A stretch of DNA of 56,395 bases from Bacteroidota bacterium (GTDB lineage Bacteria; Bacteroidota; Bacteroidia; UKL13-3), in the NCBI GenBank assembly GCA_027487625.1, contig JAIYDG010000641.1, positions 1-56,395 of the forward strand. Direction: 5' to 3'. Position 1 is the stretch's first letter; every line of letters begins with the position of its first letter. A program made the position numbers and the translations under genes. The notes beneath the pieces are model-generated. The model searched no databases. It worked only from the letters and a program-made list of their open reading frames with translations, and had not been told where the DNA came from. This document shows positions 1,249 to 30,770 of the stretch, piece by piece.

Positions 1249-2961
1249 TTATTCTTTAATTCTAAACAGCTTTTCATTTTGGGATAACTTAACTACAAAA
1301 TATTCTTCTTTGTTAATCTCTTCTGGTAGTTTGTCTTTGAGAATTGAAGCGACAAATTGAATATTATTTCTGTTAACGAAATCAGAAATTTTAACTAATT
1401 GTTTATCGTCCATTAACTCTTTTTTATCATTCAATAAGAAATGCAGACACGGAATGTTTTCATCGTCAGCAAATAAAGTGTAAGCCATATCAAAACAAGA
1501 TATTTCACCTTGTTTTTTGCCTGAACTCATGTTTGCATTGAATGAACTAAACTTATATAAGCGTTGTCCTTTTTTATTGGTAATAATGTCTGGTTTAATA
1601 GCATATTGCTCACCATACAGTTCACTTGAAATAGAAGCAAAATGTTTGTTGAATTTGTTTAACTGCGTTTTTACAACCTGTTCAAAACTATCACTGAAAA
1701 GCTCGTTGTCAATTTCACTTAGTTGTTTGTTGAATTCTTTTATGTTGGAATCAACTTCATTCAATTGTTGAATAATATTTTCAAACTCGCCTTTCTTTCT
1801 ATGCTTTTCGGTCAACTCCACAATTACTTTTTCAAGTTCTTCAAACGAATCACTTTTTGAAATTGCAGATGCTACTTTTTTTTCCTCCTCAAGTAGTCGC
1901 TTTAGAAAATTATTATTTTCTGCAAGAGATTTTTCAAGAGCGGGTAATTCTTTGGTGATATATTTTACCTTTTCCTCAATCATTGTGTTATGAAAAGACA
2001 CAAGATCCGAAAATGATTTTTGAATTGTCTTTACTTTGGTAGTTGCTTGTTCATAAATGATTTCCAATTGTCGCAAGTCAATATCTGACTTGCTAGATTT
2101 AAGTTCTGCTTCTGTTTCTTTTATCAGGTTTTTACGAATGTTAAGTTTTCCAATACTTGAACTTAATTTATTGACCTCATATTTTACTTGATTCAGTTTG
2201 TCTAAATCTTTCTCAAAGTTTTCATTTAAGTTGAAACTACTTTTCTTCTTGTTCAGTTCTTCAATATCATTGTTTATAAGAGACAAAGCTGTTTCGTAAG
2301 CCGTTTTTGTTTGATTCTTTTCAAGTCGATTCTTGTATGTATCTTCTTGTTTAAGTTTGATCAAAATTTCCTGCTTGCTATTTCCTTTTGTGAATTCACA
2401 CCCAAACAGAAAAAGATAAAGTGTTTCGTATTCTGCATCAGAAGTATATTTGTCAAGTGTCTTGAGGGTGTTGTTTATATTTTCGTCTTTATAACGGATG
2501 TTGTGGGAAATGATTTGTCGGAAGGAAGGTTTGTCTTCAAGATGGTCAGGGAATAGAGTTTTACCAAGCTCCATCTCAAAATTTTCTGCAAGTATCTGTT
2601 GGCTATTTATCCTTCTTATTCCTTCTTTTACAGATGATAAAAAATTTCTTTCTATAACAACTTCATTAGCTTCATGATTATCTAAATCAGATGTTAAAGT
2701 AAGAGTAATTAGAACTTTATTTTCAATTAGAAAATCTTTCACAAGTTTATACTCATCTCGTTTCGTTTCAGGGTCAACATATATGTTCTTTTTATCAGCC
2801 CCCAAACAAAAATCTACCAATTTCAGAACGGTAGTTTTACCAACGCTGTTACCTGTTATTTGATGTTCACTTTCGTCAACAATCAAGTTAAGCCCTTTGT
2901 GAAATTCAATTTCACGAATGACTTTAGCACCGCTTGTTATTGTTAATGATTTTATGAACAT
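1249..2961 (-). CDS. lmuB: Lamassu/ABC-3C ABC-type SMC-like ATPase (DUF2326 family, LmuB-like)
   Basis: Walker A GNSVGKTT, long central coiled coil, ABC signature NMSSGKKQG, Walker B-like FLLND; third gene of an overlapping three-gene unit. Confidence 0.85.
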   Translation of the reverse strand: MFIKSLTITSGAKVIREIEFHKGLNLIVDESEHQITGNSVGKTTVLKLVDFCLGADKKNIYVDPETKRDEYKLVKDFLIENKVLITLTLTSDLDNHEANEVVIERNFLSSVKEGIRRINSQQILAENFEMELGKTLFPDHLEDKPSFRQIISHNIRYKDENINNTLKTLDKYTSDAEYETLYLFLFGCEFTKGNSKQEILIKLKQEDTYKNRLEKNQTKTAYETALSLINNDIEELNKKKSSFNLNENFEKDLDKLNQVKYEVNKLSSSIGKLNIRKNLIKETEAELKSSKSDIDLRQLEIIYEQATTKVKTIQKSFSDLVSFHNTMIEEKVKYITKELPALEKSLAENNNFLKRLLEEEKKVASAISKSDSFEELEKVIVELTEKHRKKGEFENIIQQLNEVDSNIKEFNKQLSEIDNELFSDSFEQVVKTQLNKFNKHFASISSELYGEQYAIKPDIITNKKGQRLYKFSSFNANMSSGKKQGEISCFDMAYTLFADDENIPCLHFLLNDKKELMDDKQLVKISDFVNRNNIQFVASILKDKLPEEINKEEYFVVKLSQNEKLFRIKE

Positions 2962-3179
2962 AATTCTATTTCGCCTTTAGGATTAAGTTTTGCAACTTCC
3001 AATAAATATAACCAATCTAAACAAAGTATAAATACTGAAAATGACATCTGCTTTTTTGATTTTACTTCTTGATATAAGTCAAGCATTTTGTAACTCGTAT
3101 CTTTTTTCAAAGAGTCAATTACAAATGCACCGTTATAATAGATGCTGTTGTCAGGATGTATGTTATCAGGTAGTAGCAT
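2952..3179 (-). CDS. lmuC: ABC-three-component middle component (MC6-like, LmuC-like), 75 aa
   Basis: Likely start ATG 3179 (MLLPDNIHPDNSIYYNG...FILCLDWLYLL). It overlaps both neighbours, and its size and position match ABC-3C middle components. Confidence 0.8.
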   Translation of the reverse strand: MLLPDNIHPDNSIYYNGAFVIDSLKKDTSYKMLDLYQEVKSKKQMSFSVFILCLDWLYLLEVAKLNPKGEIELCS

Positions 3180-4134
3180 AATTGTAGCTGTCTGGGTTTT
3201 CAAAAATTTTGCACCTAATAAATGCATCTACCACAAGTATGTTAATGCAAAGTTCAAGTTCGTCAAATGGAATCGAAGTATAATTGGAACTATTCAAAAT
3301 CTTTTCTTCCACTTTAGAAATCACAGAAAAGAAAAGTTGGTCATCAGTCAAGTTACTTTTTTCTTTTGCATATTCCTGTCTAATGGTTGAGAGAACAGAA
3401 CTGCTTTTGTTGCTCCCTTGTGAATCAAATTCTGTGTAGATTTTATCGACCCTACCATAATGAACTGTATAATCATTAATGATTACTTTTGAAGCTTTCA
3501 AATTGTTGTGGGAAATTTTTCGGTCAATCTCAAAGCTACTGATTTCAGAAACTGACTCTGACTTGTCCCAATCTTCTTTGGCAAGAATATTTATTACAGC
3601 TGCTAAGTTGGATTCCAATTTCATTGGGTCAATTTCTGCCACCAATTCTTCTTTCACAAATTGGTATATCTGTTTTTGGTCATTTATATGCAGTCCTCTA
3701 ATTTTTGAAAGGATGGAGTTTTTATCGATTATGTCAGCAGAGGGAGTGAAACTAATTCCGTGAGGGTTTTTGAACGTGTCTTTTCTTAAGTCGTCAGCAT
3801 CTCTTGCAATGGAAACAAACTTAAATGTATATCCAACATATTTTTTGATTGAATCCTTGGAAAGAGAAGATTCGATTTTCTGTTTGCTCGAAGTAGATGA
3901 AACTTGAATAACAAACTTGTTTGGATGGTCAATTAGATCAATTGCCTCAACATTTTGTTGGTTATCATTTTCATTCGTAACTGTCCAGCCATAAACTTCA
4001 TTTAAGAAATATTGGTAGAAGTTTTCGGAGTGTCCATGAAAGTCCAATATGTTCAACCTTCCTCTGGAAATTATCCTAAGAGCAAGAAGGTTTAAGCGTT
4101 CTTCAATAACATTAAAATAATTTGCCCTATTCAT
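3166..4134 (-). CDS. lmuA: Lamassu effector (LmuA-like): SMEK-type nuclease-fold N-terminal domain plus ABC-3C C-terminal domain
   Basis: N-terminal HSENFY...LN...N.N...NVEAIDLID...FVIQVSS (PD-(D/E)xK-like, SMEK family); C-terminal ILVVDAFIRCKIFENP typical of ABC-3C CTDs. Confidence 0.8.
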   Translation of the reverse strand: MNRANYFNVIEERLNLLALRIISRGRLNILDFHGHSENFYQYFLNEVYGWTVTNENDNQQNVEAIDLIDHPNKFVIQVSSTSSKQKIESSLSKDSIKKYVGYTFKFVSIARDADDLRKDTFKNPHGISFTPSADIIDKNSILSKIRGLHINDQKQIYQFVKEELVAEIDPMKLESNLAAVINILAKEDWDKSESVSEISSFEIDRKISHNNLKASKVIINDYTVHYGRVDKIYTEFDSQGSNKSSSVLSTIRQEYAKEKSNLTDDQLFFSVISKVEEKILNSSNYTSIPFDELELCINILVVDAFIRCKIFENPDSYNYATT

Positions 4135-4144
4135 CTTCTGTCTG

Positions 4145-4152
4145 CAAACTTA
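4145..4152 (-). promoter_or_regulatory. Bacteroidota housekeeping -7 promoter box inside the cassette
   Basis: TAAGTTTG (TAnnTTTG consensus) on the minus strand, 10 nt upstream of the lmuA ATG. No clear -33 box. Confidence 0.6.
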
Positions 4153-4314
4153 ATCATTTTAAACGTGAATTTTATTTTCATAAAGTGTCAATATTCTAGT
4201 GGTTTATTTAGTGTTATCGTTGTTATCTTACGCTTGCCTGTAACATCCGCCCTTAAGTCGTTGAAGGTTCGTAAAACAAATTTTAAGTAAAGAAGCGGAT
4301 ATTCGTAATAGTAT

Positions 4315-5040
4315 TTAAAATATTTCACTTAAAATTCTGTTGGAATTTAATTCAGGAAACTGATGTAAATGAAACTGGTAATACCTGATTAGGGCATCCA
4401 ATACTAGTTTTCTTATATCCCTTGTGGTTTCTATTTCAAATAAATTACTCAGATTTGAACTCAGTATTTGTTTTAAAAATAAACTTTCTTGACGATTTAA
4501 AACCTCCGATGTAAACTCATTTGATTTCACAAAAATCCCTTCTTTTAAACTGAAAAATACTCTTTCATTGTCATGGAAGTTTTCAGGAAAAAAGCCCAAG
4601 TACTTAGATAAATGTGCCATAAAAAAACATGGAACATTTGCTAAACTTGTTTCTTGTAAATCTATAAATTGAATCGTATTAAATAAAAAATCAAATAGTT
4701 GTTTGTCGACCTGATTTTCTTCTCTTAAACACTTATTTAGCAATTCAGAAATAAACAATGCAATAGAAGATTTTAATAAATCATAATGTATTTGATATAA
4801 GGTTGGAGAACATTTGAGTTCTTTTATTCTTTGCAGATTTTTATTCTGTTGATGAAAAGTATCAAGCTCAAGTAAACTTAATACCTGCAATTGTGATGGT
4901 TTTATTGCACCCTTTTTACTTCTTACACCATTTACCATGTAAGATTGTAGACCATACAAATCTGTATAACATTTCAGAACAACAGAATTTTCTGAATATG
5001 GAATAGTAGAAATAACAATTGCACGAAGTTTCCCTAACAT
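4315..5040 (-). CDS. recO: DNA repair protein RecO
   Basis: N-terminal OB fold (AIVISTIPYSENSVVLKCYTDLYGLQSYMVNG), LSKYLGFFP, FSLKEGIF; 241 aa. Confidence 0.9.
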   Translation of the reverse strand: MLGKLRAIVISTIPYSENSVVLKCYTDLYGLQSYMVNGVRSKKGAIKPSQLQVLSLLELDTFHQQNKNLQRIKELKCSPTLYQIHYDLLKSSIALFISELLNKCLREENQVDKQLFDFLFNTIQFIDLQETSLANVPCFFMAHLSKYLGFFPENFHDNERVFFSLKEGIFVKSNEFTSEVLNRQESLFLKQILSSNLSNLFEIETTRDIRKLVLDALIRYYQFHLHQFPELNSNRILSEIF

Positions 5041-5043
5041 GAA

Positions 5044-5316
5044 CTATAAAGAATTGTGGGCCAGTAAGCCTTCCTTTGTAGCTAAATAAGAATATGCCTT
5101 CATGTTATCAGAATCATAGATAAAACTTCTTACATATTCCATTTTGGCTTCGTCCCAGCGCATGGCAACAATCATCTTTTTATGTATCAAAGTTTTTATA
5201 CCATCAGCTACTATTGGTGCAGGAAGATTTACTTCTTCCAAAATATTTTCAAAAGGCTCAACAAAATATACGCTGTTAAGTATATCTCTTTCTAAATCGC
5301 TTAGTTCGTATACCAT
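5044..5316 (-). CDS. Small hypothetical protein, possible winged helix (90 aa)
   Basis: Likely start ATG 5316, directly after the GT2 stop. The pattern LSDLERDIL...IKTLIHKKMIV...YLATKEG resembles a wHTH. Confidence 0.6.
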   Translation of the reverse strand: MVYELSDLERDILNSVYFVEPFENILEEVNLPAPIVADGIKTLIHKKMIVAMRWDEAKMEYVRSFIYDSDNMKAYSYLATKEGLLAHNSL

Positions 5317-5317
5317 A

Positions 5318-6454
5318 TTAAATGTGTTTTCTTCCCTTCCAATTATAACCCGCCAAATTGGCCCATATTCCAATAATTAGAACATAAAGAATATGAAAAG
5401 GTTCGGCTATCAATAAAAATAAAATTAAATAAGAACGTTTAAAAAAAAGCAGTACATCAAACAAAAATAAACCTTCAATTAAAGCTTTAATAGCAATTTG
5501 AATGAATGCCAACCAAAGGAAATTATCATAGAATATGCTCAGAATAAAATTCAATAAAATTGTTAAATTAAAGAAATAAGCAGCTGCTAAAATTGCTGTA
5601 ATAGATCTATTTTCATAATGCGTACTCTTTGAAACCCAACGTCGTCTTTGATTGGCCAATTGTTCAACCGACGAATTGGGTGAAGTGCTTACCAAGGCGC
5701 GTAAATCTTTTAAAAAAAATACTTCATTTGGATACATTTTAAATACTTTATGTAGCAAGTATTCATCATCCCCTGAAGCAATATGGTTATTGTCATCATA
5801 ACCTCCCATTTCAATAAAAACTTCTTTTTTAAAAGCCAGATTTGCTGCACTACACATATTGGGTTTCTTAAGTCTAATGGCTGCTCCGCCAATTCCAACC
5901 AATCCGCTAAACTCTAATGCTTGGATATGTTCAAAAGCACCATTTGAAGAAAATTCAACCGGAGCATAAATCATTTTACAATTGTGTTCAACAATAAATT
6001 CATTAAGTGCTTTTAACCAATCAGAATTTCGCCTACAATCTCCATCAGTTAAAACTATCCATTCGGTTTGAGCAGTATTCACACCAAATGTAATAACATC
6101 CTTTTTGTTATTAATTGCTGAAAAGGTGCTTAAATCAACCAGTTTCAAGGGGAAATTTTTATTATCCTGAATAAATTTCTCTGTAATCTCTCCAGTTTTG
6201 TCTGCTGAATGGTCGTTTAAAATAAGGATTTCGAATAAATCAAAAGGATAATTCAAACTTAAAAGACTATTCAAATTTTCAAGTATCAATTCCTCTTCAT
6301 TTCTTACAGGAATTAGAATAGTAAACTTTGTTTTGTTTTCATTTTTAAAAGGTTCTGTTCTTTGTTTTATTAAAATCCAACCAATCCAAAACATTAAAAT
6401 CAAGACAAAATAAAATGCCAAAAGCGAAAACGAAACTATATACCAAGTTATCAT
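5318..6454 (-). CDS. Membrane-bound glycosyltransferase family 2
   Basis: ILIPVRNEE, LNDHSAD, LTDGD (DxD), SGDDE, QRRRW motif; flanking TM helices. Confidence 0.92.
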   Translation of the reverse strand: MITWYIVSFSLLAFYFVLILMFWIGWILIKQRTEPFKNENKTKFTILIPVRNEEELILENLNSLLSLNYPFDLFEILILNDHSADKTGEITEKFIQDNKNFPLKLVDLSTFSAINNKKDVITFGVNTAQTEWIVLTDGDCRRNSDWLKALNEFIVEHNCKMIYAPVEFSSNGAFEHIQALEFSGLVGIGGAAIRLKKPNMCSAANLAFKKEVFIEMGGYDDNNHIASGDDEYLLHKVFKMYPNEVFFLKDLRALVSTSPNSSVEQLANQRRRWVSKSTHYENRSITAILAAAYFFNLTILLNFILSIFYDNFLWLAFIQIAIKALIEGLFLFDVLLFFKRSYLILFLLIAEPFHILYVLIIGIWANLAGYNWKGRKHI

Positions 6455-7398
6455 GTTTTTATTTTATAAATGATGAAGTAACCATATAAAGCCGGAATAA
6501 TCATATTAATAATCCAAAGTGTATAAGAGGCCAATAATATGCCAGGAATATTTGAGGAAAACATACCAATAAACCAAATTGCAGCAGAGCCACGTAATCC
6601 TAATTCAAGCAATAAAAAAGAAGGAACAAAAAAAAAAAAAAAAAAGGTAGAAATAATAGCAGAAAATGCATCAAAAGCTGAAATTTCAACCTGAAAGAAT
6701 TTTAGTAATAACCAGAATTGAACCAAATAAGTACAAAATCTAAATACTGATAAAATCAGAACATTCAGTAAAAGATCACTTTTTTTTTTTTTTTTAACAT
6801 TAATTGATTCTTCATACTTCTTTAAAAATTTGAACTTATTCAAAAGTGGACTTAAAAGTTGGAAATTAAAGAAGATAAAAACAGAAATTATAGCTGCAAA
6901 TAAGCTAAGAATTGCTGTTAAAGCAGGCATTTCAGACTTCGACAGAACCAATCTCCAATAAGCAAACAAACCAAAAACAATGGTAGTTAAAACCTGAGCT
7001 GTATAACCAATTACGGCCAATAAAGCCCCTTTTAATTTGGCCAATTTATTTAGGTTTAGCACTCTACCTGCAAAATCTCCAATTTGATTTGGGGTAATAA
7101 TACTTAAAGCGATACCTGATACAACAGCAGATGTCGACTCTTTAAATGTAAATTGCTCGTATGGCTTTAATAGAACCATCCACTTTTTCACTTCCAATGA
7201 AATATTTAAAAACATTAAAGAGAATGCTAAAAAAAAGAAGAATAATGATTTAGGTTGATATAGTGCCACAAAATCTAAATACCTTTCATTAATATTAAAT
7301 GTATTGGTTAATTTGTAGCCAATAAATACAAATGACCCAATTAGAAGTACTAGCTTCAAAAATTGCAGTAAGTATTTCATTTGGGAATTTGAGTTCAT
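6451..7398 (-). CDS. Lysylphosphatidylglycerol-synthase TM / flippase-like membrane protein
   Basis: Multi-TM protein with ITPNQIGDFAGR and ELGLRG motifs. Likely start ATG 7398, since the longer ORF overlaps ruvC. Confidence 0.8.
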   Translation of the reverse strand: MNSNSQMKYLLQFLKLVLLIGSFVFIGYKLTNTFNINERYLDFVALYQPKSLFFFFLAFSLMFLNISLEVKKWMVLLKPYEQFTFKESTSAVVSGIALSIITPNQIGDFAGRVLNLNKLAKLKGALLAVIGYTAQVLTTIVFGLFAYWRLVLSKSEMPALTAILSLFAAIISVFIFFNFQLLSPLLNKFKFLKKYEESINVKKKKKSDLLLNVLILSVFRFCTYLVQFWLLLKFFQVEISAFDAFSAIISTFFFFFFVPSFLLLELGLRGSAAIWFIGMFSSNIPGILLASYTLWIINMIIPALYGYFIIYKIKT

Positions 7399-7410
7399 TA
7401 ATAGATTAGC

Positions 7411-7418
7411 TAAGTTTG
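7411..7418 (+). promoter_or_regulatory. -7 promoter box for ruvC
   Basis: TAAGTTTG, 40 nt upstream of the ATG. Confidence 0.5.
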
Positions 7419-7458
7419 GCGGCAAAGAAACAAAGGCAAGCGACGATAAACAAATACA

Positions 7459-8046
7459 ATGATTGAAAAGAAGGAGAGAATTATTTTGGGTATCGACCCT
7501 GGAACTATTGTTATGGGTTACGGGATTATCATAACTAAGGGTAAACAAGCGGAATTACTGGGCATGGGCGTCCTTAAGCTAGATAAATACGCAGACTATG
7601 CACTAAAATTAAAAAAGATATTTGAACGCACTGTTGGACTAATAGATGAATTTCATCCTGATGAATTAGCGATTGAGGCACCGTTTTTTGGAAAAAATGT
7701 TCAATCGATGTTAAAATTAGGCCGAGCTCAGGGTGTAGCTATAGCCGCTGCCATGAGCAGAGAATTAAGTGTTAATGAGTATTCTCCTAAAAAAATCAAG
7801 CAATCTATAACTGGCAATGGTAATGCAAGTAAAGAACAGGTTGCAATCATGTTACAAAGAATTTTCAAATACGAAGAGAACCAAAGTTTTTTTGATGCAA
7901 CAGATGGTTTAGCTGCAGCATATTGCCACTTTATGCAAAACACACAAATTATTAAGGCAACACCAGTCAAAAAGAGCATAAAAAAAGCTTCCAGTTGGGA
8001 AGCTTTTGTCAATCAAAATCCTGATAAAGTAAAAAAGAAACCTTAA
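7459..8046 (+). CDS. ruvC: Holliday junction resolvase RuvC
   Basis: [40 protein letters not shown]. Confidence 0.97.
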
Positions 8047-8441
8047 GCATGAAACTGGCTTCTAATCTTATTTGCGATATCAGCCAAAGCTTCTTGGCTT
8101 AAATTTAATTTTTCATTAGAAAAATTCATTTCATTTATTGTAGAAAATGGAATTAAATGAATATGTGCATGAGGTACTTCTAAGCCAATAACAGAAACCC
8201 CAATTCTCTTATCGGGGAATGCTGATTTTAAACCATCTGCTACGATTTTCGAAAAAAGATGAAGTCCAACAAATTTCTCCACATCCAAGTCAAAAATATA
8301 ATCTACTTCAATCTTTGGAATAACCAAAGTATGTCCTATTGTAAGAGGTCTGATGTCTAAAAAAGCAAAATAATCTTCTGTTTCTGCGATTTTATGGCAA
8401 GGAATTTCACCACTTATTATTTTAGAAAAAATGCTGCTCAT
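8043..8441 (-). CDS. HIT family nucleotide hydrolase
   Basis: [26 protein letters not shown], histidine triad HAHIH. Confidence 0.95.
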
Positions 8442-8914
8442 TAAAGTGTAATTTCAAGAATTTCAAACTTTAATAAACCTGCTGGAACTTGAACCTCAAC
8501 TACATCTCCAATTTTTTTGCCCATAAGTCCAATTCCAATTGGAGATTTAAAAGAAATTTTACCCATTTTTAAATCAGCTTCCTTTTCGTTAACTAAGGTG
8601 TAAATCAATTCTTTTTTTGTTGTTTGATTTAATACTCTCACATTACTTAGCATCATTACTTTACTTGTATCAAGTTTTGATTCATCAATAATGCGAGACA
8701 TGGTAATCAAGTCGTTTAATACTGCAATTTTTGCTTCCAATAAACCTTGATCTTCTTTAGCAGCATGATATTCTGCATTTTCACTTAAATCGCCTTTATC
8801 TCTAGCATCAGCAATTTGCTTTGTAATGAATGGTCTTTGCACATACTTCATATCATGAAGTTCTTTGTTTAATTTCTCCAGACCCTCTTTTGTTACATAA
8901 TTAAATTCAGCCAT
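8441..8914 (-). CDS. greA: Transcription elongation factor GreA
   Basis: GDLSENAEYHAAKE, ISFKSPIG. Confidence 0.97.
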   Translation of the reverse strand: MAEFNYVTKEGLEKLNKELHDMKYVQRPFITKQIADARDKGDLSENAEYHAAKEDQGLLEAKIAVLNDLITMSRIIDESKLDTSKVMMLSNVRVLNQTTKKELIYTLVNEKEADLKMGKISFKSPIGIGLMGKKIGDVVEVQVPAGLLKFEILEITL

Positions 8915-8949: not shown

Positions 8950-8986
8950 AAAAGAAACGTTCCGACAAGTCGGAACGTTTCTTTTT
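8950..8986. terminator. Bidirectional intrinsic terminator after the PorV-family gene
   Basis: AAAAGAAACGTTCCGAC-AA-GTCGGAACGTTTCTTTT perfect inverted repeat. Confidence 0.85.
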
Positions 8987-9013: not shown

Positions 9014-10126
9014 CTATTTTCCAGCAATATTCAAACGAATACCAACTGTATGCATACCATTAAAAATTCTGGTAGGAGCATATGAGTAATCCAATGCAAA
9101 TGCAGTTCCACCTTTAGTTACAGGAACCTGTAAAGTGCAACCTGCCCAAATTCCATAATCAGGGGCATAATTTGTAGGATTGTTCATATCGTTAGTAAAT
9201 GAATTACCATTTTGAACATTGTATGCAGCTCTTAACATGAACATTTCTTTGAAAGAATATTCAGCACCAAAGCCTAAAATATTCGATTGAAATGCATTGT
9301 ATTGGAAATTACCGCTAGCAGTTAATCTATGAAAATAAGTACTTTCATTTTGGTCTAAACGCATATCATATGATAAGCCAATATTAACCAAAGCAGGTAA
9401 GTTAAATTTATCAGCATCAAACAAAGCTCTTCTATCGGCACCAGTAGAAGTATTCATTGCACGGAATGATAAACCAGAACCAGAATAAGATAAATCGGGA
9501 CCGATATTTCTAGCAGAGATACCTAATCTAAAATCTTCTTTTTTAATCTTTTTCTTCTTAGCATTAAAAGAAGTTTGGTATTGTACACCAAAATCAAAAC
9601 CCACTCCAGAAGCTCTAACATCGGCAGTTCCTTCAGAAATAATTCTTAGTAACACACCACCAGTAATACTATTTGAAAATGTTTTTGAGTACGATGCATT
9701 TAAATTTACAACAGATGGTGTAAAAGAAGGTAATGTACCATCAGGATTGTCAAAAGTAGTGATAGGAACATCCCCAAAATTCCAAGAGGTAATGCCTAAA
9801 CCCAAAACACCACCAGCACCTTCTTCACCAAGAGATTGAGCTAATCCAAGATTACTGATATTAACTCCGGCACCAGCCAAGTAAGTCATTCTTGAAAAAG
9901 CAACTTCTGTACCTTTGGTATAAGCAAGACCACCAACGTTTAAGTAAAAAGATTCAACTCCTCTTACATTAGCTGTATTACTATTACCCAATCCGCTTGA
10001 GCGTGCAAATGGATTCACAACCAATTGTGTTGCACCAGCACCTCCGGCCCTATCAGGGTTTCCAGCAAAAGCTGAAATTCCAAATGATAGTAAACCTATT
10101 ATTCCTAAAGTAATTTTCTTATTCAT
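9014..10126 (-). CDS. PorV/PorQ-family outer-membrane beta-barrel (T9SS shuttle-like)
   Basis: Signal peptide, GAGATQLVVNPFARSSGLG, YLNVGGLA, alternating beta strands, C-terminal ALDYSY...HTVGIRL. Confidence 0.85.
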   Translation of the reverse strand: MNKKITLGIIGLLSFGISAFAGNPDRAGGAGATQLVVNPFARSSGLGNSNTANVRGVESFYLNVGGLAYTKGTEVAFSRMTYLAGAGVNISNLGLAQSLGEEGAGGVLGLGITSWNFGDVPITTFDNPDGTLPSFTPSVVNLNASYSKTFSNSITGGVLLRIISEGTADVRASGVGFDFGVQYQTSFNAKKKKIKKEDFRLGISARNIGPDLSYSGSGLSFRAMNTSTGADRRALFDADKFNLPALVNIGLSYDMRLDQNESTYFHRLTASGNFQYNAFQSNILGFGAEYSFKEMFMLRAAYNVQNGNSFTNDMNNPTNYAPDYGIWAGCTLQVPVTKGGTAFALDYSYAPTRIFNGMHTVGIRLNIAGK

Positions 10127-10154
10127 TTCAATTTCTTTTTAAGGTTAGATAATT

Positions 10155-10182
10155 CCCGTTTTGTTCTTTTGAACAAAACGGG
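10155..10182. other. Intergenic stem-loop without a U-tract (mRNA stabiliser or partial terminator)
   Basis: CCCGTTTTGTTC-TTTT-GAACAAAACGGG, a 12-bp perfect stem between the cargo gene and the PorV-family gene. Confidence 0.6.
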
Positions 10183-10193
10183 CTATTATATTT

Positions 10194-13100
10194 TTAGAAG
10201 GTATCGAAATCCACTTTACGCATGATACCAAACCATTTGATTACTCTTTCACCAATTCCATCAGCATAAACATGCATCAAATAAACACCACTTGAAATTG
10301 GAACATTAGCATCATTCTTCAAATCCCAATCAATGTATGTTCTTGAGTCATCATCTTTTCTAATTCTACGAACTAAGAAACCACCTTGAGTATAGATTGA
10401 AACAACACATTTTTTAGGAAGATTAGCCAATCTTACTCTAGTATCTAATTGGTTGTTTGGATCTTCGTAACCTGCATAAGCATAGTATGGATTAGGAGAG
10501 ATTGTTACTAAATCCAAAGCTGTTTTTCCAGCTTCAGCTGTTCCAACTGATGGAGCGATGTTTTCAGTAGAGAATCTGTACAATGGCAATCCATTATTCT
10601 CTAACACACTTGAAGTAGAAGTATAAGTAGCATAAGGACGTTTAACTCTTAATTTAATTGTAGTTGTATTAGGAATTAAACCATCTTTAATACTTAACAA
10701 TTTAGATTGAGGAGTTAAAATTGGAATTGTAACCCACATTGCTTGAGAGAAAATATAACGTTTGTTTAAAGAAGCACCAGTTCCAGCTTCAATTAAATTA
10801 AACAAACTATCATAACTTCTAGCTTCATCATAACGTGGACCACGGTAACGAACCGGAGTACTTGGAGAGGTTCTAAATCCTTTAGTTCCCATGATATATA
10901 TATGGTGTTTTCCACCCATTGTATATTCAAAACCACCTACATCATTTCTAATTAAGTTTCCTGTTGGATTCCAAATCATATCACTACCATTTTCACCAGG
11001 TAATGAAGAATCTTCAGCAAACATGATATTCAATCTTTCACCTGTTTCAACATTTACTGCATAACCAGGGAACCAACCTAAACCTGTTCCTGCAACTGGT
11101 TTGCCATCCTGATCAACCGATGAAGACTTACGACGATTCAATTTAATAGCACCACCAATTGTTGTAGTAGAATTTTCACCAGATTCTAAAACCACACAAC
11201 GAGTCCATTTAGTTTTATCACTGGTTAGTACCAAATCAACACCTTGCAAATCAGCTAACGAATTATCATCAGAAGCACCACCAATACCTAAACCTGTACC
11301 ATCAGAACCTACAGCCCAAGCCGGACCAAAAGAAGAACCTACAGGAGGTGTAGCAGTTGGATTAGCTAATGCTCTTGCAGCTAAAGCATATGGAGCCCAT
11401 GTACCACCAAGTATTTTACCATAAGCTTTTCTTGGATCTAAAGAACGTTTTGGACTTCCAACAGCAAAATCGTGCTCATAAAAATTCTCAAAATTAGGAG
11501 AACCAGCATTTCCAGAACGTATCCAGTTGAATGGAGCAAATGGAGCAACTTCATCAGGTACACCAGTTAACCAAGCATTATTGCTGTTTGCAAACGATAA
11601 AGAAGCTGAGATATAACCATTACTAATATCGGTTTCATCATCAGGATTTCCTGGAGCAACAGCTTGTTCAATTGTAACACTTAGACCCCATTTACTGAAC
11701 ATTTGTTCATTTGGCGAACCAATTGCTCTTTCTGCTAAAATTACTTCACCTGTAGTTAAGTTCTTTAATGTCCAGTATGTAGAGTCTTTGCTTAGAGATA
11801 CAGATTTGTCAGCGGCAAATGATGAATCAGCTAATTTCAATTCAAATTTTGCATTAGGGATATTAAAAGGATTAATAACTTTTACTAAAACAGGACCTAA
11901 AGCTTTTTTGTATTTAGGAACTTCAACATAGTAAGGAGCTACTAAAGCTTTTTGAATTGTTTCTTCTGTTAATTGAATTTCATGTCCAGCATTACCAATA
12001 CCTTCAACTTTTTCAATTTCAGGACCATCTCCATAGAAAGAATTTAGAATAGTACCTTGTCCATGAGGAGCTGCTTTATGAGGAACAGCCATGTATGTAT
12101 TATTACCGGCACCATCATAACGTTTACGTCCAGATAAATATTGAGTTTGTTCACTTGAGCAATTAGTTGCGCTTGAGTAAGCAACTAGGTAATAGTAGTA
12201 GTTCTGGAAATTAGCTAAAGTTTGATCAGAAGCTGTAGAGAATAAATCTTTAGTTACTTCAAAACTATGTTGAACACCTTTATCAGCTCCATTCACCATA
12301 ATCTTTTTAACATTACCTAAATCAGCATCGTTAACAATATTTACAATCAAATTTACTCCATCAACAACATCGCATTGAGCAACTAAACGAGCTTCATCAT
12401 TGTTGTAAATATCTCCTGGAGGTGAACTAGTTTTAGTTTGGAAGATTTGATATCCTTGGAACTTATAGATTGTTTTATTAGCACATAAACCTGAACTTGA
12501 ATCCAAATAAGACTCAGTTTTTTGGTAGTTAGTGATATTGATAATCAACTTACGGTCTAATTCAGTAATTTCTAAAGAAGGAATTGAAGGACCATCAATA
12601 AATTTGAAATTATTTTTATAAAGTACAAATGCTTTATCAGAAGCTTCTTTTAACAAGTTGAATGAACCAGTAGCACCACCAGTAGTAGCACGAGCCCAAA
12701 CTACAGCAATAGTTACTTCATTTTTTGCACCAGGTAACATACTAAATGAACCTGCAGTTTGCATGAAACGTCTGTCACCAGGTTGGTTACCCGCAATTCT
12801 TTCAGTCCATGATTCTCTGTTAGCTGGATCTGAATTACCAGGGAACATGAATGAAGCAGTATCACTACCTCCTCTACCATTTCCACCATAAGTAATATTC
12901 AAACCATCTTTCCAACGACCATTTAAATAGTTCCAATAATGTTCAGGACGAGAAGGATTTCCAGTAACTGAAAAGTCATTGTTATAGTAAACAAATTTTG
13001 TCAAACCAATTTCAGTTCCATCTGGACGTCTTGGACCTTCGAAAAAGTTTACACCCACACTTGGAGGATTTAAACCATATCCTAAGATACCTTCATCATT

Positions 13101-14063
13101 ATCGTCACCATTGTAACAAATACCTAAGTTTCTTTTTACATCACACTCTACATAGTCGTCAGAGTAGTTACCTAAATCGGCATCAACCCACTGACCAAAA
13201 ATACATGAGTCAATAGTTTCAGTTCCTCTGTTGAAAATAGTAGTTCTGTAAAAAGTCATGTTATTCACTTCATCATTAGTTGAATAACCAAAACATTGTG
13301 TATGTAATTCTAAGCCGATAGGTAAACCTTCAGTTTCAGAGTGAATATTACCTTTATCGTTGTAAATCATATACAACATCATATCAGGAATATTGTCTGA
13401 TTTATTAAAATCAAAAGAAGGATAATCACCAGCAACTGGATCATAAATATTATTTCCGTCAACATCGTAGAATGGAGCTAAAGTAGCTGCTTCACCAGTT
13501 TTTCCATTTCCAGGCCAGCCTGAAATAATAGAACTAGGAGTTGACCAGTTTTCAGGATTATTTCTGAACTCATCAATTTCCTGAAGAGTAATTTTCCAAA
13601 TCTCATCATAAGCCTTACAAGTTTCTTTTGTAACAGTTCCTCTTGCAGAACCATCAACCTGTAAAGGACCTGGATAGTAATCGTTACCACTTTGGCGATA
13701 AGTTTGAGCGGCAATTCTCAAGTTTCCTTGAGTAATACCACCAATCCACAATGCACCTGAGAACAATGAGTGTTTTGAAACTTGTCCCGGGTTAACTTTA
13801 GGAACTTCATATCTGGCATTACTTAAGTTCCACCACATATCACCACCATTAAGAATTGTGGTTCTAACATTGTTAACGTCCAGATCTTTTTGCTGAGTGG
13901 CAGCTTCGCAACCACCTGCTTTTTTAAGCAAATTAGCTTTTGAATTCTTTTTGCCTAAACCAATATTTTCCATTGCAAATCCAGAGCTGCTTATGGCTAT
14001 GAAAGCAAGGACACAAACTGATTTTGCGAAAAACTTTGTTGTTAATGTATTCATAATTGTCAT
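10194..14063 (-). CDS. Large secreted protein with T9SS C-terminal sorting domain, function unknown (1289 aa)
   Basis: Signal peptide; C-terminal ISPNPYY...SIYTQGG.LVR.I...WDLKNDANVPISSGVYLMHV; possible Ca-binding loop DVDGNNIYD. Confidence 0.85.
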   Translation of the reverse strand: MTIMNTLTTKFFAKSVCVLAFIAISSSGFAMENIGLGKKNSKANLLKKAGGCEAATQQKDLDVNNVRTTILNGGDMWWNLSNARYEVPKVNPGQVSKHSLFSGALWIGGITQGNLRIAAQTYRQSGNDYYPGPLQVDGSARGTVTKETCKAYDEIWKITLQEIDEFRNNPENWSTPSSIISGWPGNGKTGEAATLAPFYDVDGNNIYDPVAGDYPSFDFNKSDNIPDMMLYMIYNDKGNIHSETEGLPIGLELHTQCFGYSTNDEVNNMTFYRTTIFNRGTETIDSCIFGQWVDADLGNYSDDYVECDVKRNLGICYNGDDNDEGILGYGLNPPSVGVNFFEGPRRPDGTEIGLTKFVYYNNDFSVTGNPSRPEHYWNYLNGRWKDGLNITYGGNGRGGSDTASFMFPGNSDPANRESWTERIAGNQPGDRRFMQTAGSFSMLPGAKNEVTIAVVWARATTGGATGSFNLLKEASDKAFVLYKNNFKFIDGPSIPSLEITELDRKLIINITNYQKTESYLDSSSGLCANKTIYKFQGYQIFQTKTSSPPGDIYNNDEARLVAQCDVVDGVNLIVNIVNDADLGNVKKIMVNGADKGVQHSFEVTKDLFSTASDQTLANFQNYYYYLVAYSSATNCSSEQTQYLSGRKRYDGAGNNTYMAVPHKAAPHGQGTILNSFYGDGPEIEKVEGIGNAGHEIQLTEETIQKALVAPYYVEVPKYKKALGPVLVKVINPFNIPNAKFELKLADSSFAADKSVSLSKDSTYWTLKNLTTGEVILAERAIGSPNEQMFSKWGLSVTIEQAVAPGNPDDETDISNGYISASLSFANSNNAWLTGVPDEVAPFAPFNWIRSGNAGSPNFENFYEHDFAVGSPKRSLDPRKAYGKILGGTWAPYALAARALANPTATPPVGSSFGPAWAVGSDGTGLGIGGASDDNSLADLQGVDLVLTSDKTKWTRCVVLESGENSTTTIGGAIKLNRRKSSSVDQDGKPVAGTGLGWFPGYAVNVETGERLNIMFAEDSSLPGENGSDMIWNPTGNLIRNDVGGFEYTMGGKHHIYIMGTKGFRTSPSTPVRYRGPRYDEARSYDSLFNLIEAGTGASLNKRYIFSQAMWVTIPILTPQSKLLSIKDGLIPNTTTIKLRVKRPYATYTSTSSVLENNGLPLYRFSTENIAPSVGTAEAGKTALDLVTISPNPYYAYAGYEDPNNQLDTRVRLANLPKKCVVSIYTQGGFLVRRIRKDDDSRTYIDWDLKNDANVPISSGVYLMHVYADGIGERVIKWFGIMRKVDFDTF

Positions 14064-14075
14064 GATACTTATTAA

Positions 14076-17000
14076 TTAAAAATATAGGGCAAGACCTAAA
14101 CGAGTTAAACGCGGTAATCCAAAACGATCCGGATTTAACATCCTTGCATTATATAAGTCAACATAAGACTGCTGATCGGTTGCAGTTCTAATTTGTTCTT
14201 GAGCTTGAGGTGAAGCCAAAAATCCATCATTGTATGCGCTACCAGTATATCTGAACACTGAAGTTACGTTAGCACTGTTCAATAAATTTTGAATCCAGAT
14301 GAAAGCACGTAAGCGATATACAGTTGTTGAACCATCAACTTTCTTTTGTTTGAATTCGAAGTTTTTATCGATGTTAATATCAATATTATACTGAGCTGGT
14401 AAGTTAGCACCATTGATAGTTCCTTTGATTGGACTTCTTACAACAACACCTGATTGAACTCCATCCGGTGTAGGTAACATATTTTGAGTGTAAGGTCTTC
14501 CTGAGTAAGTTGTGAATACGAAGTTGATACCTGCATTTTCAAGAATCTTTTTACCATTAACTATTGGACCATTGTACTCTTTACCAGTTTTGTAATGGAA
14601 ATCAAAAGTCATTTTTAATGTATGACGTGTATCAAAATCCATTGGGTAAATAGTTCTTAAGGTTGGTAAACCTACTTGAATCAATGCATTACTTGAAGTA
14701 GCATTAGAACCTGTGCCATCTGCAAACTGAATTTGGTAGTTAGCACCTAATGAAATATTTCCTAATTCACGAATATTATACTCTAAACCAATTGATTTAA
14801 CTGTTGAGAAGTCTAAGTTACCAAAAGTTGTATAATCATTTGGCCAAGCTTGAACATAACGGAACAATTGAACCATGTTTCTATATTCACGGTAAGAGGC
14901 GATAATTCCTAAAGCTGCATCCTGACCAATTTGTTGACGGAAACCAATTTCGTAATCGGTAACTTGAGTCATTTTCAAATCAGGATTAGCAATTGCTCCA
15001 CCACTTAAACGATTTTGTAAGTAGTAGTAATCATCAATCTGTCCAACATTTGCCGAAGGTCTTTGAGTTAAGATATCATAAGTACCAAAGAACTGGCTTG
15101 TAGTTGAAATCGGGAATGAGAACCATACACGAGGTAATAATTTTACATCTGGAACATAATCTGTAAAAGATGCTAAAGTTGGTTTATTAGGATTTGATGG
15201 ATCGATTAATAAAGGAGTATTTCTAGCAGTTTTTGCATTTCTTCCAATTTGAGCAGGGTCTGAGATAGGATTTCCATTCTCATCATACCAATTGTTTCCT
15301 TTTCTAAAACCTGCAACTCTTAAATCACCACTTTGACCACCTTCACCAAATTTTTCATTGTTTACATAAATTGCATAATCGTCGCCAATAGTTGTAGGAA
15401 TAGCTGATTTTAAATTCTTAAATCTTGGATCTTCACTACCTTTAACTTCACCTACTGAATAAATTGGAGCCATGCTATATGGATCTTTTAATACAGGTTG
15501 GTTAGCATCAAAACGCTCCATTCTTAATCCAACACGAACAATTAAATCTTTGAATACAAATTTATCTTGAACCCATGCAGCTAAGTATGTTGGTTGATAA
15601 GCTGGTAATAATCTGCTGGTAGGATTGTTTAAGAAATCTTCAATAGATGGTTTCTTTCTAACTATTTTCCCTAAATGATCATAACCTGAATAACTTACGA
15701 TTGAATTACCATTGTTTAATAACTCATCAGCATTAAACATATCTAATGAATAAGTGCCAGGAGTATAAGAATTAACATCTAAGAAACTGTATTGGTTAAT
15801 AGGATTACCATTAGCATCTAATGCTCCTGATGCTATCAATTTGTTTCTTAAGTTTTTATCAAAATTAGTTTGGTCAGCATCAACAATTTTCCTATTGAAC
15901 CAAACTGTATCCTGGAATACACCATTTTGGTCAAACTTCATGGTAGGAATAGTATCTAAGCCTGTAAACTGACGATTTGCATATAAGCGCATCAATGACC
16001 ATAATCCATTTGTACCAAGACCATAAGATCTTCTGAATTGTTGCTCACCAGTGATACCTAATTGAATTTCGTGTTTTGCTTTAGGATTACTTTTTGGAGC
16101 AATTGTGAATTCACTCATGATATATACTGTAATAATTTCAGCTAAACTCTTGCTGTAACCATTACCATTTGTACCAACATTACCCCACATATTAGAATAA
16201 ATTCCGTTAGGATTATCTCCATTAATTAAACCACCAAATTGACGAACAGTTCCTAAGTTATTAATATTACCTGCACCTAAATAATCATATAGTGCTTGAG
16301 TATAATTTCCTCTTACTCTATTTATATCAGCTTGTTCAAAAGTGAATGAAGTATCAGTATTACCAACCTGTCTAACATAGTTGGTTAAATAAATGTATTT
16401 ACCATTATCCATTAAGAAACTATCTGCAGGCTGACCAAAATTCTTAACAACTCTAGAAAAAGTTGGAGCTTGGTAAGTAGTGAATTTTCCTAAGTAACCA
16501 TAATTAAAATAGTCTTTTTGGAATTCAGGATCCATTGATTCATTTTGAGCTCTCTCATAAGAAAGACGAACTGAATAAAATGCATTACTAATTCCACCAA
16601 CTTTTGCAGGGTCCTGTTTATCTTTTGATTTATCATCATTATCACTAGAAAAGCTTTGGGTGAACTGAAGATAAGTTCTGAATATATTAGACCTAGACAT
16701 TGAGTTATTCGCATTGTTCATTAAGGAATTAAAATGATTCCAGTTATTACCCTGTGCAAAATTTCCAAAATAACCCAAACGAAGATTGATGTTTTTAGTA
16801 GGCTGAAAATTGAAGTTACCATTGATATCAACTCTATAACTAGCAGCATTTTGTTTGAAACCAACTTTTTCTAAATCATTTGCTCTTAAGTATTCAGCAG
16901 CATTAAATAAAGTACCTGAAGCACTAGGAACTAATGGCGTTTTTTCCAACTGAGCCAATTTATCAGCTTTAACTTGGTATAAATCAACTGCTGGTAAAGA

Positions 17001-17873
17001 ACCATCTCTTGCATAGGTAAAAGCACCTGAAAGTAAGAATCCAACTAATACTCTTTCCTCATTACCTCTACCTTTATTAATAGTTTTAATCGGACCCGAA
17101 ATTAAAGCCTGAGTTTGATTAAAATGAGAGTTGTCTAAATAACCCGCGAAAGGTGAAGCTGTAATTACTTCTATACCTCTATTAAAGTATTTAGTAGGGG
17201 CTTTTGTTGTGATACTAATAGCACCACCCACAAAGTCACCATATTGAGCAGGAGTACCACCGGTAATTACTTGAATTTGGTCGATTGCATTTTGAGGAAT
17301 ATTTCCGGCACCCGCATTTACACGAACACCATCAATATAATAAGCAGTACCTTCAGCACGTGCACCACGAATATTCGGAGTACCACCACCTCTTGATTCA
17401 ACACCCATAACGGTATTGGCAATACTATTCACGTTTCTCACAGGTGAGGCCATGATTTCTTTGGCAGTTAATTTACCACCTTTAACACCACCACGGTCAA
17501 CAAGATCTTTCTTTTGCTTAATTACAACTTCGATCAGTTCATTACCACCGCCACTCATTGAAAAATCTACGAATTTATCTTCCTCAGCAGCAATATAAAT
17601 ACCTTCGATTTTGGTATTGGGATAACCAATAAAAGTTGCAAATAAATCGTACTCTCCTGGTTGTAGAGCCTTAATAATAAAAGCGCCATCATCATCAGAG
17701 AGTGCAGTAGCCTTTGCTACACCATTGAGCTTCAACGTAATACTTACGTAATCAAGTGGTTTTTTGGTCTTGCCATCGATAACTTTTCCCCTTAAGGTTC
17801 CCAGTCCAGATTGGGCAAAAACACCCAAATGGAGGAAGAAGGCAAAAATAAGAAGTGAGTATATTTTCTTCAT
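14076..17873 (-). CDS. TonB-dependent receptor-like barrel with N-terminal carboxypeptidase-regulatory-like domain (1265 aa)
   Basis: GTLRGKVIDGKTKKPLDYVSI, plug NIRGAR...YYIDGV...IQVITGGTPAQYGD...GGAISITTK, NPDLK, C-terminal PRLTRLGLALYF. Confidence 0.9.
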   Translation of the reverse strand: MKKIYSLLIFAFFLHLGVFAQSGLGTLRGKVIDGKTKKPLDYVSITLKLNGVAKATALSDDDGAFIIKALQPGEYDLFATFIGYPNTKIEGIYIAAEEDKFVDFSMSGGGNELIEVVIKQKKDLVDRGGVKGGKLTAKEIMASPVRNVNSIANTVMGVESRGGGTPNIRGARAEGTAYYIDGVRVNAGAGNIPQNAIDQIQVITGGTPAQYGDFVGGAISITTKAPTKYFNRGIEVITASPFAGYLDNSHFNQTQALISGPIKTINKGRGNEERVLVGFLLSGAFTYARDGSLPAVDLYQVKADKLAQLEKTPLVPSASGTLFNAAEYLRANDLEKVGFKQNAASYRVDINGNFNFQPTKNINLRLGYFGNFAQGNNWNHFNSLMNNANNSMSRSNIFRTYLQFTQSFSSDNDDKSKDKQDPAKVGGISNAFYSVRLSYERAQNESMDPEFQKDYFNYGYLGKFTTYQAPTFSRVVKNFGQPADSFLMDNGKYIYLTNYVRQVGNTDTSFTFEQADINRVRGNYTQALYDYLGAGNINNLGTVRQFGGLINGDNPNGIYSNMWGNVGTNGNGYSKSLAEIITVYIMSEFTIAPKSNPKAKHEIQLGITGEQQFRRSYGLGTNGLWSLMRLYANRQFTGLDTIPTMKFDQNGVFQDTVWFNRKIVDADQTNFDKNLRNKLIASGALDANGNPINQYSFLDVNSYTPGTYSLDMFNADELLNNGNSIVSYSGYDHLGKIVRKKPSIEDFLNNPTSRLLPAYQPTYLAAWVQDKFVFKDLIVRVGLRMERFDANQPVLKDPYSMAPIYSVGEVKGSEDPRFKNLKSAIPTTIGDDYAIYVNNEKFGEGGQSGDLRVAGFRKGNNWYDENGNPISDPAQIGRNAKTARNTPLLIDPSNPNKPTLASFTDYVPDVKLLPRVWFSFPISTTSQFFGTYDILTQRPSANVGQIDDYYYLQNRLSGGAIANPDLKMTQVTDYEIGFRQQIGQDAALGIIASYREYRNMVQLFRYVQAWPNDYTTFGNLDFSTVKSIGLEYNIRELGNISLGANYQIQFADGTGSNATSSNALIQVGLPTLRTIYPMDFDTRHTLKMTFDFHYKTGKEYNGPIVNGKKILENAGINFVFTTYSGRPYTQNMLPTPDGVQSGVVVRSPIKGTINGANLPAQYNIDINIDKNFEFKQKKVDGSTTVYRLRAFIWIQNLLNSANVTSVFRYTGSAYNDGFLASPQAQEQIRTATDQQSYVDLYNARMLNPDRFGLPRLTRLGLALYF

Positions 17874-17978
17874 TTACTTAGGATTTACAATTTCAAAACA
17901 AATTTTAAGAGCGGTAAAATAAATCAGTTAAAAGCAATTTAACAACTTTAAGGTAACAGTAATCAACAAACCTAAAAA

Positions 17979-30735: not shown

Positions 30736-30770
30736 AAGCAAAACTAATTGATACTTGATACATTTGTACA

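Follow-up and report, generated by a model that had tools for sequence, protein, structure and literature searches.

A conserved SusD-less outer-membrane trio in Bacteroidota: a TonB-dependent transporter, a large secreted protein with a type IX-like C-terminal domain, and a distinct PorV-family barrel

TonB-dependent transporters with surface partners are the means by which Bacteroidota feed, and the partners known so far, such as SusD, RagB, and the surface glycan-binding proteins (SGBPs), are lipoproteins. Here, we analyzed a locus of a Bacteroidota bacterium (class Bacteroidia, UKL13-3; assembly GCA_027487625.1, contig JAIYDG010000641.1) in which a gene for a TonB-dependent transporter is followed by genes for a large secreted protein and for a smaller outer-membrane barrel. 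By the window we mean the full stretch of 56,395 nt that was analyzed; the trio, genes 1 to 3, occupies positions 9014-17873 of it on the minus strand. Its three co-directional open reading frames (ORFs) lie at 17873..14076 (gene 1, 1265 aa), 14063..10194 (gene 2, 1289 aa), and 10126..9014 (gene 3, 370 aa), with gaps of 12 bp between genes 1 and 2 and 67 bp between genes 2 and 3. The operon ends in an intrinsic terminator (8950..8985, minus strand) placed 29 nt past the last stop and made up of a 16-bp stem (6 G-C pairs), a 4-nt loop, and a T-rich tail; its RNA folds at -24.9 kcal/mol (z -6.1), an energy equaled by 0 of 200 shuffles. ORF positions and folding energy thus agree with a first-pass annotation that had described three tightly spaced genes closed by a strong terminator. 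On the other side of the trio, a 105-bp spacer (17874..17978, minus strand) reads as a putative promoter region, and one RNA-library contig from a close relative extends into it, to 17922; a scan for sigma-70-type promoters gave 24 sites against a mean of 39.4 in shuffles, a count that is uninformative in this phylum. The three genes most likely form one operon for an outer-membrane complex.

That the genes belong together is borne out by comparison with other genomes. We collected 76 related loci from species-representative genomes and considered those with room for the neighboring genes (at least 3.9 kb upstream, at least 1.25 kb downstream). The transporter is present in 57 of the 58 loci with upstream room, the exception (L059) having three unrelated ORFs upstream; the barrel is present in all 61 loci with downstream room; and all three genes occur in 51/51 loci with room on both sides. 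Spacing varies little: across the 49 loci whose ORF triplets are clean, genes 1 and 2 are 11-35 bp apart and genes 2 and 3 are 20-85 bp apart. Conservation is equal for all three proteins (mean identity 0.619, 0.618, and 0.595 for genes 1, 2, and 3). When 401 genomes of the phylum were surveyed with a profile, 207 had the gene 2 family at E<=1e-10. Within the same class, full-length matches are limited to certain families (8/8, 3/3, 1/1, 1/1, 1/1, and 2/21 genomes), and none was found in the largest sampled families of the class (0/87, 0/28, and 0/12). Of 18 fetched regions, 6 are from the same class and 12 from other classes; the trio stands in the same order in 5 and 11 of them, respectively, and the other two contain solo paralogs of gene 2. 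Outside the class, both the transporter (974-1153 aa) and the partner (1047-1268 aa) are shorter. The trio is single-copy in each same-class genome examined.

SprA, a component of the system of type IX secretion (T9SS), was present in 28/28 genomes bearing the family, which were chosen for bearing it, and in 20/20 checked same-class genomes without it. These two counts indicate that the trio needs, or always accompanies, the T9SS and yet is not a general part of it. The named relatives of gene 2 all carry labels of uncultured metagenome-assembled genomes (MAGs), and this, together with the lack of matches in the sampled major families, may explain why the trio has not been encountered in model organisms. 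Full-text literature searches, which do not reach supplements, found no publication describing it; the trio is ancient, widespread, and apparently unstudied. Added by the present analysis are the fold scores for the gene 2 supersandwich, the barrel phylogeny, the T9SS-positive genomes that lack the trio, the ranking of codon usage, and a conserved stem-loop between genes 2 and 3, each given below.

Gene 1 (14076..17873, minus strand) encodes a 1265-aa TonB-dependent transporter, with a signal peptide, a CarboxypepD_reg domain (residues 26-118, 47 bits, above the Pfam cut-off), a plug, and, probably, a long, divergent barrel. The plug spans residues 135-217 (17223..17471, minus strand; PF07715, 42.9 bits vs. 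a cut-off of 23.9), and its motifs are kept in the ortholog alignment. No Pfam barrel model matches gene 1 itself, and its ortholog L105, from another class, matches PF00593 at 3.2e-19. A family profile built from 28 orthologs matches the plug and first strands of 5fr8 (1.5e-17) and of the colicin I receptor Cir (1.7e-16), as well as a barrel segment of PhuR (3.2e-7). Between the N-terminal domain and the plug is a TonB-box-like motif, LIEVVI (residues 113-118; 17520..17537, minus strand), whose position, like its hydrophobic E-V-V-[IV] pattern, is shared by 16 aligned orthologs; SusC-like proteins have their TonB box at this place. The barrel had been credited with very large insertions. Alignment places 110-290 aa that orthologs in other classes lack in three zones (residues ~400-550, 650-750, and 800-900), and to that extent the claim stands, as a suggestion for which the alignment is indirect support.

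By the NCBIfam model, gene 1 is not a SusC/RagA member: TIGR04056 gives no match at E<=0.1, and relatives of gene 1, which align to no more of the model than positions 2-207, score 52-84 bits where 368 are required. Pfam models at E<=1e-5 likewise found no SusD, glycoside hydrolase (GH), or regulator domain in 24 neighboring proteins, in agreement with the initial description of the locus as lacking all three. A SusD-family Pfam match is also missing among the three trio proteins themselves.

Gene 2 (10194..14063, minus strand) encodes a secreted protein of 1289 aa that belongs to a large, unannotated family. At E<=0.1 it matches no Pfam or NCBIfam model, and a PDB sequence search was likewise empty. 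Among 8000 candidates scored, 1004 are relatives, all named either "hypothetical" or "T9SS type A sorting domain-containing," and the family comprises 7298 clusters at 50% identity (E<=1e-3), or 2534 at E<=1e-30. When the ESM Atlas was searched with the whole protein, it returned unnamed clusters of its own kind and a lead (0.92) pointing at a Por_Secre_tail-bearing cluster of Fidelibacterota; a search restricted to the central part brought up nothing usable. Extra copies of gene 2 follow the barrel gene in two loci, one copy in L098 (11417-15397) and two in L110 (12663-18966), and solo paralogs occur with a Big_9 insert (L102) and with a canonical Por_Secre_tail (L113).

We modeled gene 2 with AlphaFold (AF2) in two overlapping parts, using a 54-row alignment: residues 60-1200 (predicted local distance difference test [pLDDT] 87.8, predicted template modeling score [pTM] 0.75) and residues 650-1289 (pLDDT 88.0, pTM 0.84). 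In the model, residues ~60-490 (12594..13886, minus strand) form a galactose-mutarotase-like supersandwich with Asp-rich insertions. Structural alignment with VIA-align matches it to dextran dextrinase 9ju0 (Z 18.1, root-mean-square deviation 3.2, 247 aligned) and glucoamylase 1lf6 (Z 17.9), with GH94 phosphorylases and GH116 also among the matches; Foldseek agrees weakly (E 1.7e-5, template modeling scores 0.16/0.23). The fold is that of the sugar-facing N-domains of GH15, GH65, GH94, and GH116 enzymes. It is also the most conserved part of gene 2 (mean identity 0.765 vs. 0.618 for the whole protein), and its Asp-rich motifs (residues 292-325) are invariant in the family alignments. No (alpha/alpha)6 or other catalytic domain follows the supersandwich in the models, so that the early statement that gene 2 has no recognizable catalytic domain is upheld by profiles and predicted structures alike. 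Residues ~496-660 (12084..12578, minus strand) form a beta-sandwich, probably immunoglobulin-like, a domain called by eye from the strand pattern in the AF2 model. Residues ~661-1175 (10539..12083, minus strand) form a beta-rich central region with the invariant motifs WFPGYA.N.ETGERLN and GGKH.

The protein ends in a C-terminal domain (CTD) of T9SS type (residues ~1176-1275; 10239..10538, minus strand), whose nearest neighbors by fold are the CTDs of PorZ and PorU. Residues 527-632 of the model align with PorZ 5m11 at Z 10.6 (92 aligned, 27% identity) and with PorU 6za2 at Z 9.2 (24%), whereas the CTDs of ordinary cargo score lower (mirolase Z 7.7, NucA 7.1, RemA 6.5); Foldseek also returns PorZ (E 8.6e-7). 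Gene 2 has no match to the PorZ model NF052228; CTDs of relatives match its C-terminal positions ~646-757 at 1e-6 to 1e-9 (25-36 bits vs. a cut-off of 260). A search of PDB sequences with a CTD profile returned PorZ only, at E 0.28, which is too weak to count. The earlier label of "type-A cargo" therefore holds with a reservation: a CTD beta-sandwich does stand at the C terminus, yet the domain misses Por_Secre_tail and its nearest neighbors are the retained domains of PorZ and PorU.

Beyond the CTD lies a 14-residue C-terminal tail, KWFGIMRKVDFDTF (10197..10238, minus strand), marked out by family conservation and by the interface predicted below. It reads like KWFG[IV]MRPxD[FL]D[TS]F in all but ~6 of 46 sampled family members, and in a 28-row alignment (A5) it appears as KWFGIMRPADFDTF. 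The unusual, extended CTD that had been picked out by eye in this one protein is thus a family trait. Mean identity is 0.796 in the tail and 0.698 in the CTD, both above the value for the whole protein, and such conservation is unexpected for a signal that is cleaved off.

These features bear on the plainest alternative, in which gene 2 is ordinary type IX cargo (an adhesin or an unrecognized enzyme), the barrel a mere shuttle like PorV, and the transporter a co-transcribed gene whose product makes no contact with the other two. Two relatives do pass Por_Secre_tail (L098 at 26.1 bits and L105 at 25.1, vs. a cut-off of 23), solo paralogs exist without transporter or barrel (L102, L113, and L059), and an active site is conceivable among the invariant acidic and His residues of the central region. 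Nevertheless we judge this explanation quite unlikely: a shuttle and its cargo would not account for the fixed order and 11-35 bp spacing of transporter and partner genes, for a trio that survives across classes, or for three proteins conserved equally, and the conservation of CTD and tail above the body is not what a cleaved signal would lead one to expect; nor does either AF2 model show a known catalytic-domain fold.

Gene 3 (9014..10126, minus strand) encodes a 370-aa outer-membrane barrel of the PorV/PorQ family (NF033709, 124.4 bits vs. a cut-off of 90) that falls below the equivalog models for both PorV (NF033710, 59.5 vs. 250 bits) and PorQ (NF033711, 62.2 vs. 220 bits); its only PDB sequence match is Flavobacterium johnsoniae PorV (6h3i, 8e-6). 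We considered and dropped BamG as an identity for gene 3, there being no match to the NCBIfam BamG model and PorV being the sole PDB match. To model docking, we paired barrel residues 21-370 with the C-terminal 130 residues of gene 2, using 28-row alignments for both and three controls. An interface between the barrel and the gene 2 C terminus, as expected at the outset, was predicted: interaction scores (ipSAE, a score from predicted aligned errors) were 0.86, 0.85, and 0.85 (median 0.85), against 0.00 for the best control, with at least 91% of contacts common to the runs and a partner pLDDT of at least 76. The mark applied is reached by 116 of 157 solved complexes and by 2 of 215 mismatched pairs. 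In the prediction, a PNPYY segment, the edge strands of the sandwich, and tail residues K1276-D1285 meet the barrel, including its invariant N-terminal segment (residues 24-37). As PorV-CTD complexes have been solved, the docking shows likeness to those and is no proof of binding; on the strength of the model we nonetheless consider it likely that the gene 2 CTD docks on the gene 3 barrel.

The genome has five barrels of the PorV/PorQ family: PorV, PorQ, "PorV2," one unnamed, and gene 3. The canonical PorV (477 bits, cut-off 250) adjoins PorU (1302 bits) on contig C568, PorQ (321 bits) is on contig C77, PorZ (596.7 bits) is on a separate contig, and SprA is likewise elsewhere in the genome. 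The concern that gene 3 might simply be the only porV of the genome is thereby removed, a PorU-linked PorV being present on another contig. In a quick maximum-likelihood tree of 51 barrels (midpoint root; support by the Shimodaira-Hasegawa-like approximate likelihood ratio test, SH-aLRT), PorV (99) and PorQ (99) form clades that join each other (99). A distinct clade (99) unites the barrels of the trio, which comprise 12 same-class rows (100) and 9 other-class rows, and PorV2 stands apart from all of these. By these clades, gene 3 is a dedicated, anciently distinct paralog.

With the translocon in view, a further possibility can be placed, namely that the TonB-type barrel works outwards, exporting or inserting the gene 2 protein or some other substrate. 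The precedent is the Myxococcus protein Oar, on which secretion of the protease PopC depends, and the layout of CarboxypepD_reg domain, plug, and long barrel with no SusD partner resembles that of Oar-type receptors; import-related genes are also missing nearby. However, gene 2 carries a T9SS-type CTD of its own, next to a dedicated barrel gene, in a genome with a complete translocon, and therefore a second export route for gene 2 is not needed. We hold outward transport to be very improbable.

Two of the other barrels merit a description of their own. PorV2 (C275:12610-13677) matches the NCBIfam model "putative type IX sorting system protein PorV2" at 430 bits (cut-off 325) and is present in 2 of 3 other same-class genomes checked; an ORF of 1278 aa on contig C496 has partial similarity to PorU (78 and 73 bits), and the two proteins may, by sequence, make up a second sorting pair. 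The fifth barrel (C349:34104-35105; 169 bits, no equivalog) lies downstream of a 2062-aa ORF and groups with barrels from two other-class genomes (L122 and L138; 98% SH-aLRT) as a conserved, unnamed paralog.

Codon usage sets the trio apart from most of the genome. We computed a codon adaptation index (CAI) with the str/S10 ribosomal operon, found via EF-G, as reference, and ranked 2715 ORFs of at least 200 aa. Gene 2 scores 0.801 (99.3rd percentile), gene 1 0.761 (96.3rd), and gene 3 0.746 (94.0th); ahcY, to whose codons those of the trio had been likened by eye as a hint of high expression, scores 0.799 (99.2nd), and the other genes of the window 0.57-0.75. The resemblance holds, and this codon bias predicts high expression of the trio. 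The genome is assembled in 732 contigs, and its CAI values trail off far toward the low end (5th percentile 0.41, median 0.65), perhaps owing to foreign contigs or spurious ORFs, with a slight effect on percentiles.

In public RNA data, 15 lake or other freshwater metatranscriptome runs contain 5-15% of the sampled words. Four runs yield contigs, 95-99% alike, that overlap parts of genes 1, 2, and 3, and in two of these four the junction of genes 1 and 2 is bridged, by two contigs (13954-14587 and 14029-14276); the trio itself had served to select these runs, and contigs attest presence only, with no ranking of genes. Positions 4000-8668 of the window have no contig cover in the four runs, from which nothing follows about relative expression. 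Single copy, codon bias, and a fixed housekeeping neighborhood in freshwater Bacteroidia together suggest that the trio is likely a major outer-membrane component of abundant lake bacteria.

Based on these observations we propose that the trio is an uptake complex without SusD, in which the surface partner of the transporter is delivered by the T9SS and held by its own barrel, a proposal to which we give an about even chance of being correct. Gene 2 would be exported by Sec and would then cross the outer membrane via the type IX system, of which SprA, PorV, PorU, PorQ, and PorZ are present in the genome, a point we count in favor of T9SS export. It would keep its CTD, and the CTD would stay docked on the private barrel for good, in the manner of PorZ on PorQ. 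Gene 2 would thereby remain at the cell surface, next to or above the transporter, and would there bind a ligand (probably a glycan) that would then be imported with energy from TonB, thus doing the job of SusD or of an SGBP without a lipid anchor. We infer T9SS export, CTD retention, and import as the direction of transport, and likewise the ligand and the contact with the transporter.

Gene order offers one parallel, for susD sits directly after susC, and gene 2 likewise stands directly after the transporter gene. The concept of a transporter with a lid is that of SusC/SusD (RagA/RagB), as summarized in the introduction of PMC12016534. Like SusC/SusD, the trio has a transporter with a CarboxypepD_reg-type N-terminal domain and, as the next gene, a large surface partner; unlike it, the trio has no protein of the SusD family, its partner is no lipoprotein and has a T9SS tail and a barrel of its own, and enzymes and regulator are missing. 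The second model is provided by the T9SS attachment complex of Porphyromonas gingivalis, in which PorZ and PorU are secreted, keep their CTDs, and are bound to PorV-family barrels, according to the account in PMC10202324. The pairs PorZ-PorQ and PorU-PorV resemble genes 2 and 3 in CTD fold, in the NCBIfam family of the barrel, and in the docking that we predict. They differ in that gene 3 belongs to a separate clade, that the genome has the canonical four proteins besides, and that a TonB-dependent transporter gene is attached to genes 2 and 3 (51/51 loci). Whereas the body of PorZ has a propeller architecture, that of gene 2 is a supersandwich, which sets it apart from both PorZ and PorU; and the PorZ chain ends ~4 residues past the aligned CTD in the one alignment made, where gene 2 has its 14-residue tail.

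Several points weigh against the uptake complex. The gene 2 CTD has no match to Por_Secre_tail (PF18962/TIGR04183) at E<=0.1, and the docking score may reflect memory of the solved PorV-CTD complexes (8gl6 and 8glk). A supersandwich fold is no proof of sugar binding. The ~500 residues of the central region have no structural match, the three chains with Z>=8 all lying on the CTD; the best matches of the region itself are weak rows of FlgK/FlgL type (Z 6.6-6.8) and low-probability Foldseek rows, and we do not call it a new fold, as the structure search barely tests that part. The role of gene 2 as lid or partner of the transporter is suggested by gene order, tight spacing, equal conservation, and analogy. 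RNA contigs give no transcript level, and DNA is possible in RNA libraries. Further, no genes for enzymes, regulators, or inner-membrane transporters accompany the trio among the 24 neighbors scanned. Its flanks are greA and a HIT gene downstream and a 2-hydroxyacid dehydrogenase gene, mgtE, and an rsmA-type rRNA dimethylase gene upstream; this setting is one of housekeeping genes and is syntenic, two other-class regions likewise having a 2-hydroxyacid/phosphoglycerate dehydrogenase gene upstream, and it is unlike that of typical substrate-induced polysaccharide loci.

It is this setting that gives room to another explanation, that the trio is a T9SS-linked device for surface assembly or surface glycans, a third pair of the PorZ-PorQ kind that binds the cell's own polysaccharide or lipopolysaccharide (LPS), with the TonB-type barrel in a structural part. 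Housekeeping synteny suggests steady use and codon bias high expression, no catabolic genes lie nearby, and the CTD is PorZ-like and the barrel of the PorQ/PorV family; PorZ itself supplies anionic LPS to PorU, as PMC10202324 describes it. On the other hand, the trio is no general T9SS component, as all 20/20 checked same-class genomes without the family have SprA; the present genome already has canonical PorZ, PorQ, PorU, and PorV; and a plug and TonB-box-like motif imply energized transport. We therefore regard surface assembly as unlikely.

If the T9SS-delivered, barrel-held partner that we favor is real, it would join two systems that have been studied separately, offer a role for the many PorV-like paralogs, and explain an unannotated family of thousands of sequence clusters. 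A bolder extension, which we put forward tentatively and with some doubt, is that the trio represents an ancestral, SusD-independent lid system for TonB-dependent transporters in the Bacteroidota lineage and its relatives, the lid being exported by the T9SS and locked by its retained CTD and tail on a private barrel. It would exist in many copies outside Bacteroidia and, in some orders of Bacteroidia, as one deeply conserved copy, with codon bias that predicts high expression, importing a core nutrient. Genomes of the same class have 3-4 PorV-family barrels each, and two other-class genomes have 13 each; in those two, 11 of 15 fetched barrels that are neither PorV nor PorQ directly follow a gene with a CTD-like end. 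On this extended reading, type IX secretion would serve to build uptake machines besides being a route of secretion.

Three other systems invite comparison. In BamG-BamH, BamG is a 14-stranded FadL-like barrel that binds an extracellular protein through its loops, against a larger barrel, according to the description in PMC12578637. A barrel holding a surface protein is a structural analogy to genes 3 and 2, but BamH is a lipoprotein and BamA no TonB-dependent transporter, unlike their counterparts in the trio. Proteins with type B CTDs are served by PorP/SprF-like barrels, cargo-specific and encoded beside the cargo, in the account given by PMC10202324; gene 3 is instead of the PorV family and has no TIGR03519 match, and the CTD type is also different. 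The "atypical PUL" (polysaccharide utilization locus) chu_1276-chu_1280 of Cytophaga hutchinsonii, an environmental species of the phylum, is a SusD-less outer-membrane nutrient cluster as well (PMC12016534). Its partners are ~375-aa proteins resembling carbohydrate-binding modules, and the passages of PMC12016534 that describe it include no 1300-aa CTD protein or PorV-like barrel; compared by that published description, it is a system different from the trio.

The spacer between genes 2 and 3 contains a stem-loop (10155..10182, minus strand; 12-bp stem) with no U run after it, which folds at -18.8 kcal/mol (z -6.3), an energy equaled by 0 of 200 shuffles. A hairpin of -15 kcal/mol or lower occurs in the same spacer of 18 of 28 relatives (L010-L085), with a different sequence each time, and we conclude that structure is kept here and sequence is not. 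The stem-loop may fix how much partner is made per barrel, either as an attenuator or as an mRNA-stability element.

Proteins with a GWxTD domain (TIGR04514/PF20094) are encoded directly downstream of the trio in three other-class regions, L109 (1797-4590), L110 (11265-12629), and L111 (11717-13252), and a full-text literature search for "GWxTD" returned no paper. Proteins of 722-730 aa with multiheme cytochrome c motifs and tetratricopeptide repeats directly follow the trio in two other-class regions, L105 (12163-14331) and L107 (11468-13660). Within the window itself, a DUF2326 protein (570 aa) adjoins a protein with SMEK_N and CTD10 (322 aa) at 1249-4134 (minus strand); CTD10 is, per Pfam, a C-terminal domain of ABC-three-component systems, so that the two genes resemble a small defense-type pair. 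Finally, a 474-aa esterase (29347-30771, minus strand) bears a canonical Por_Secre_tail and is ordinary T9SS cargo, in contrast to the atypical CTD of gene 2.

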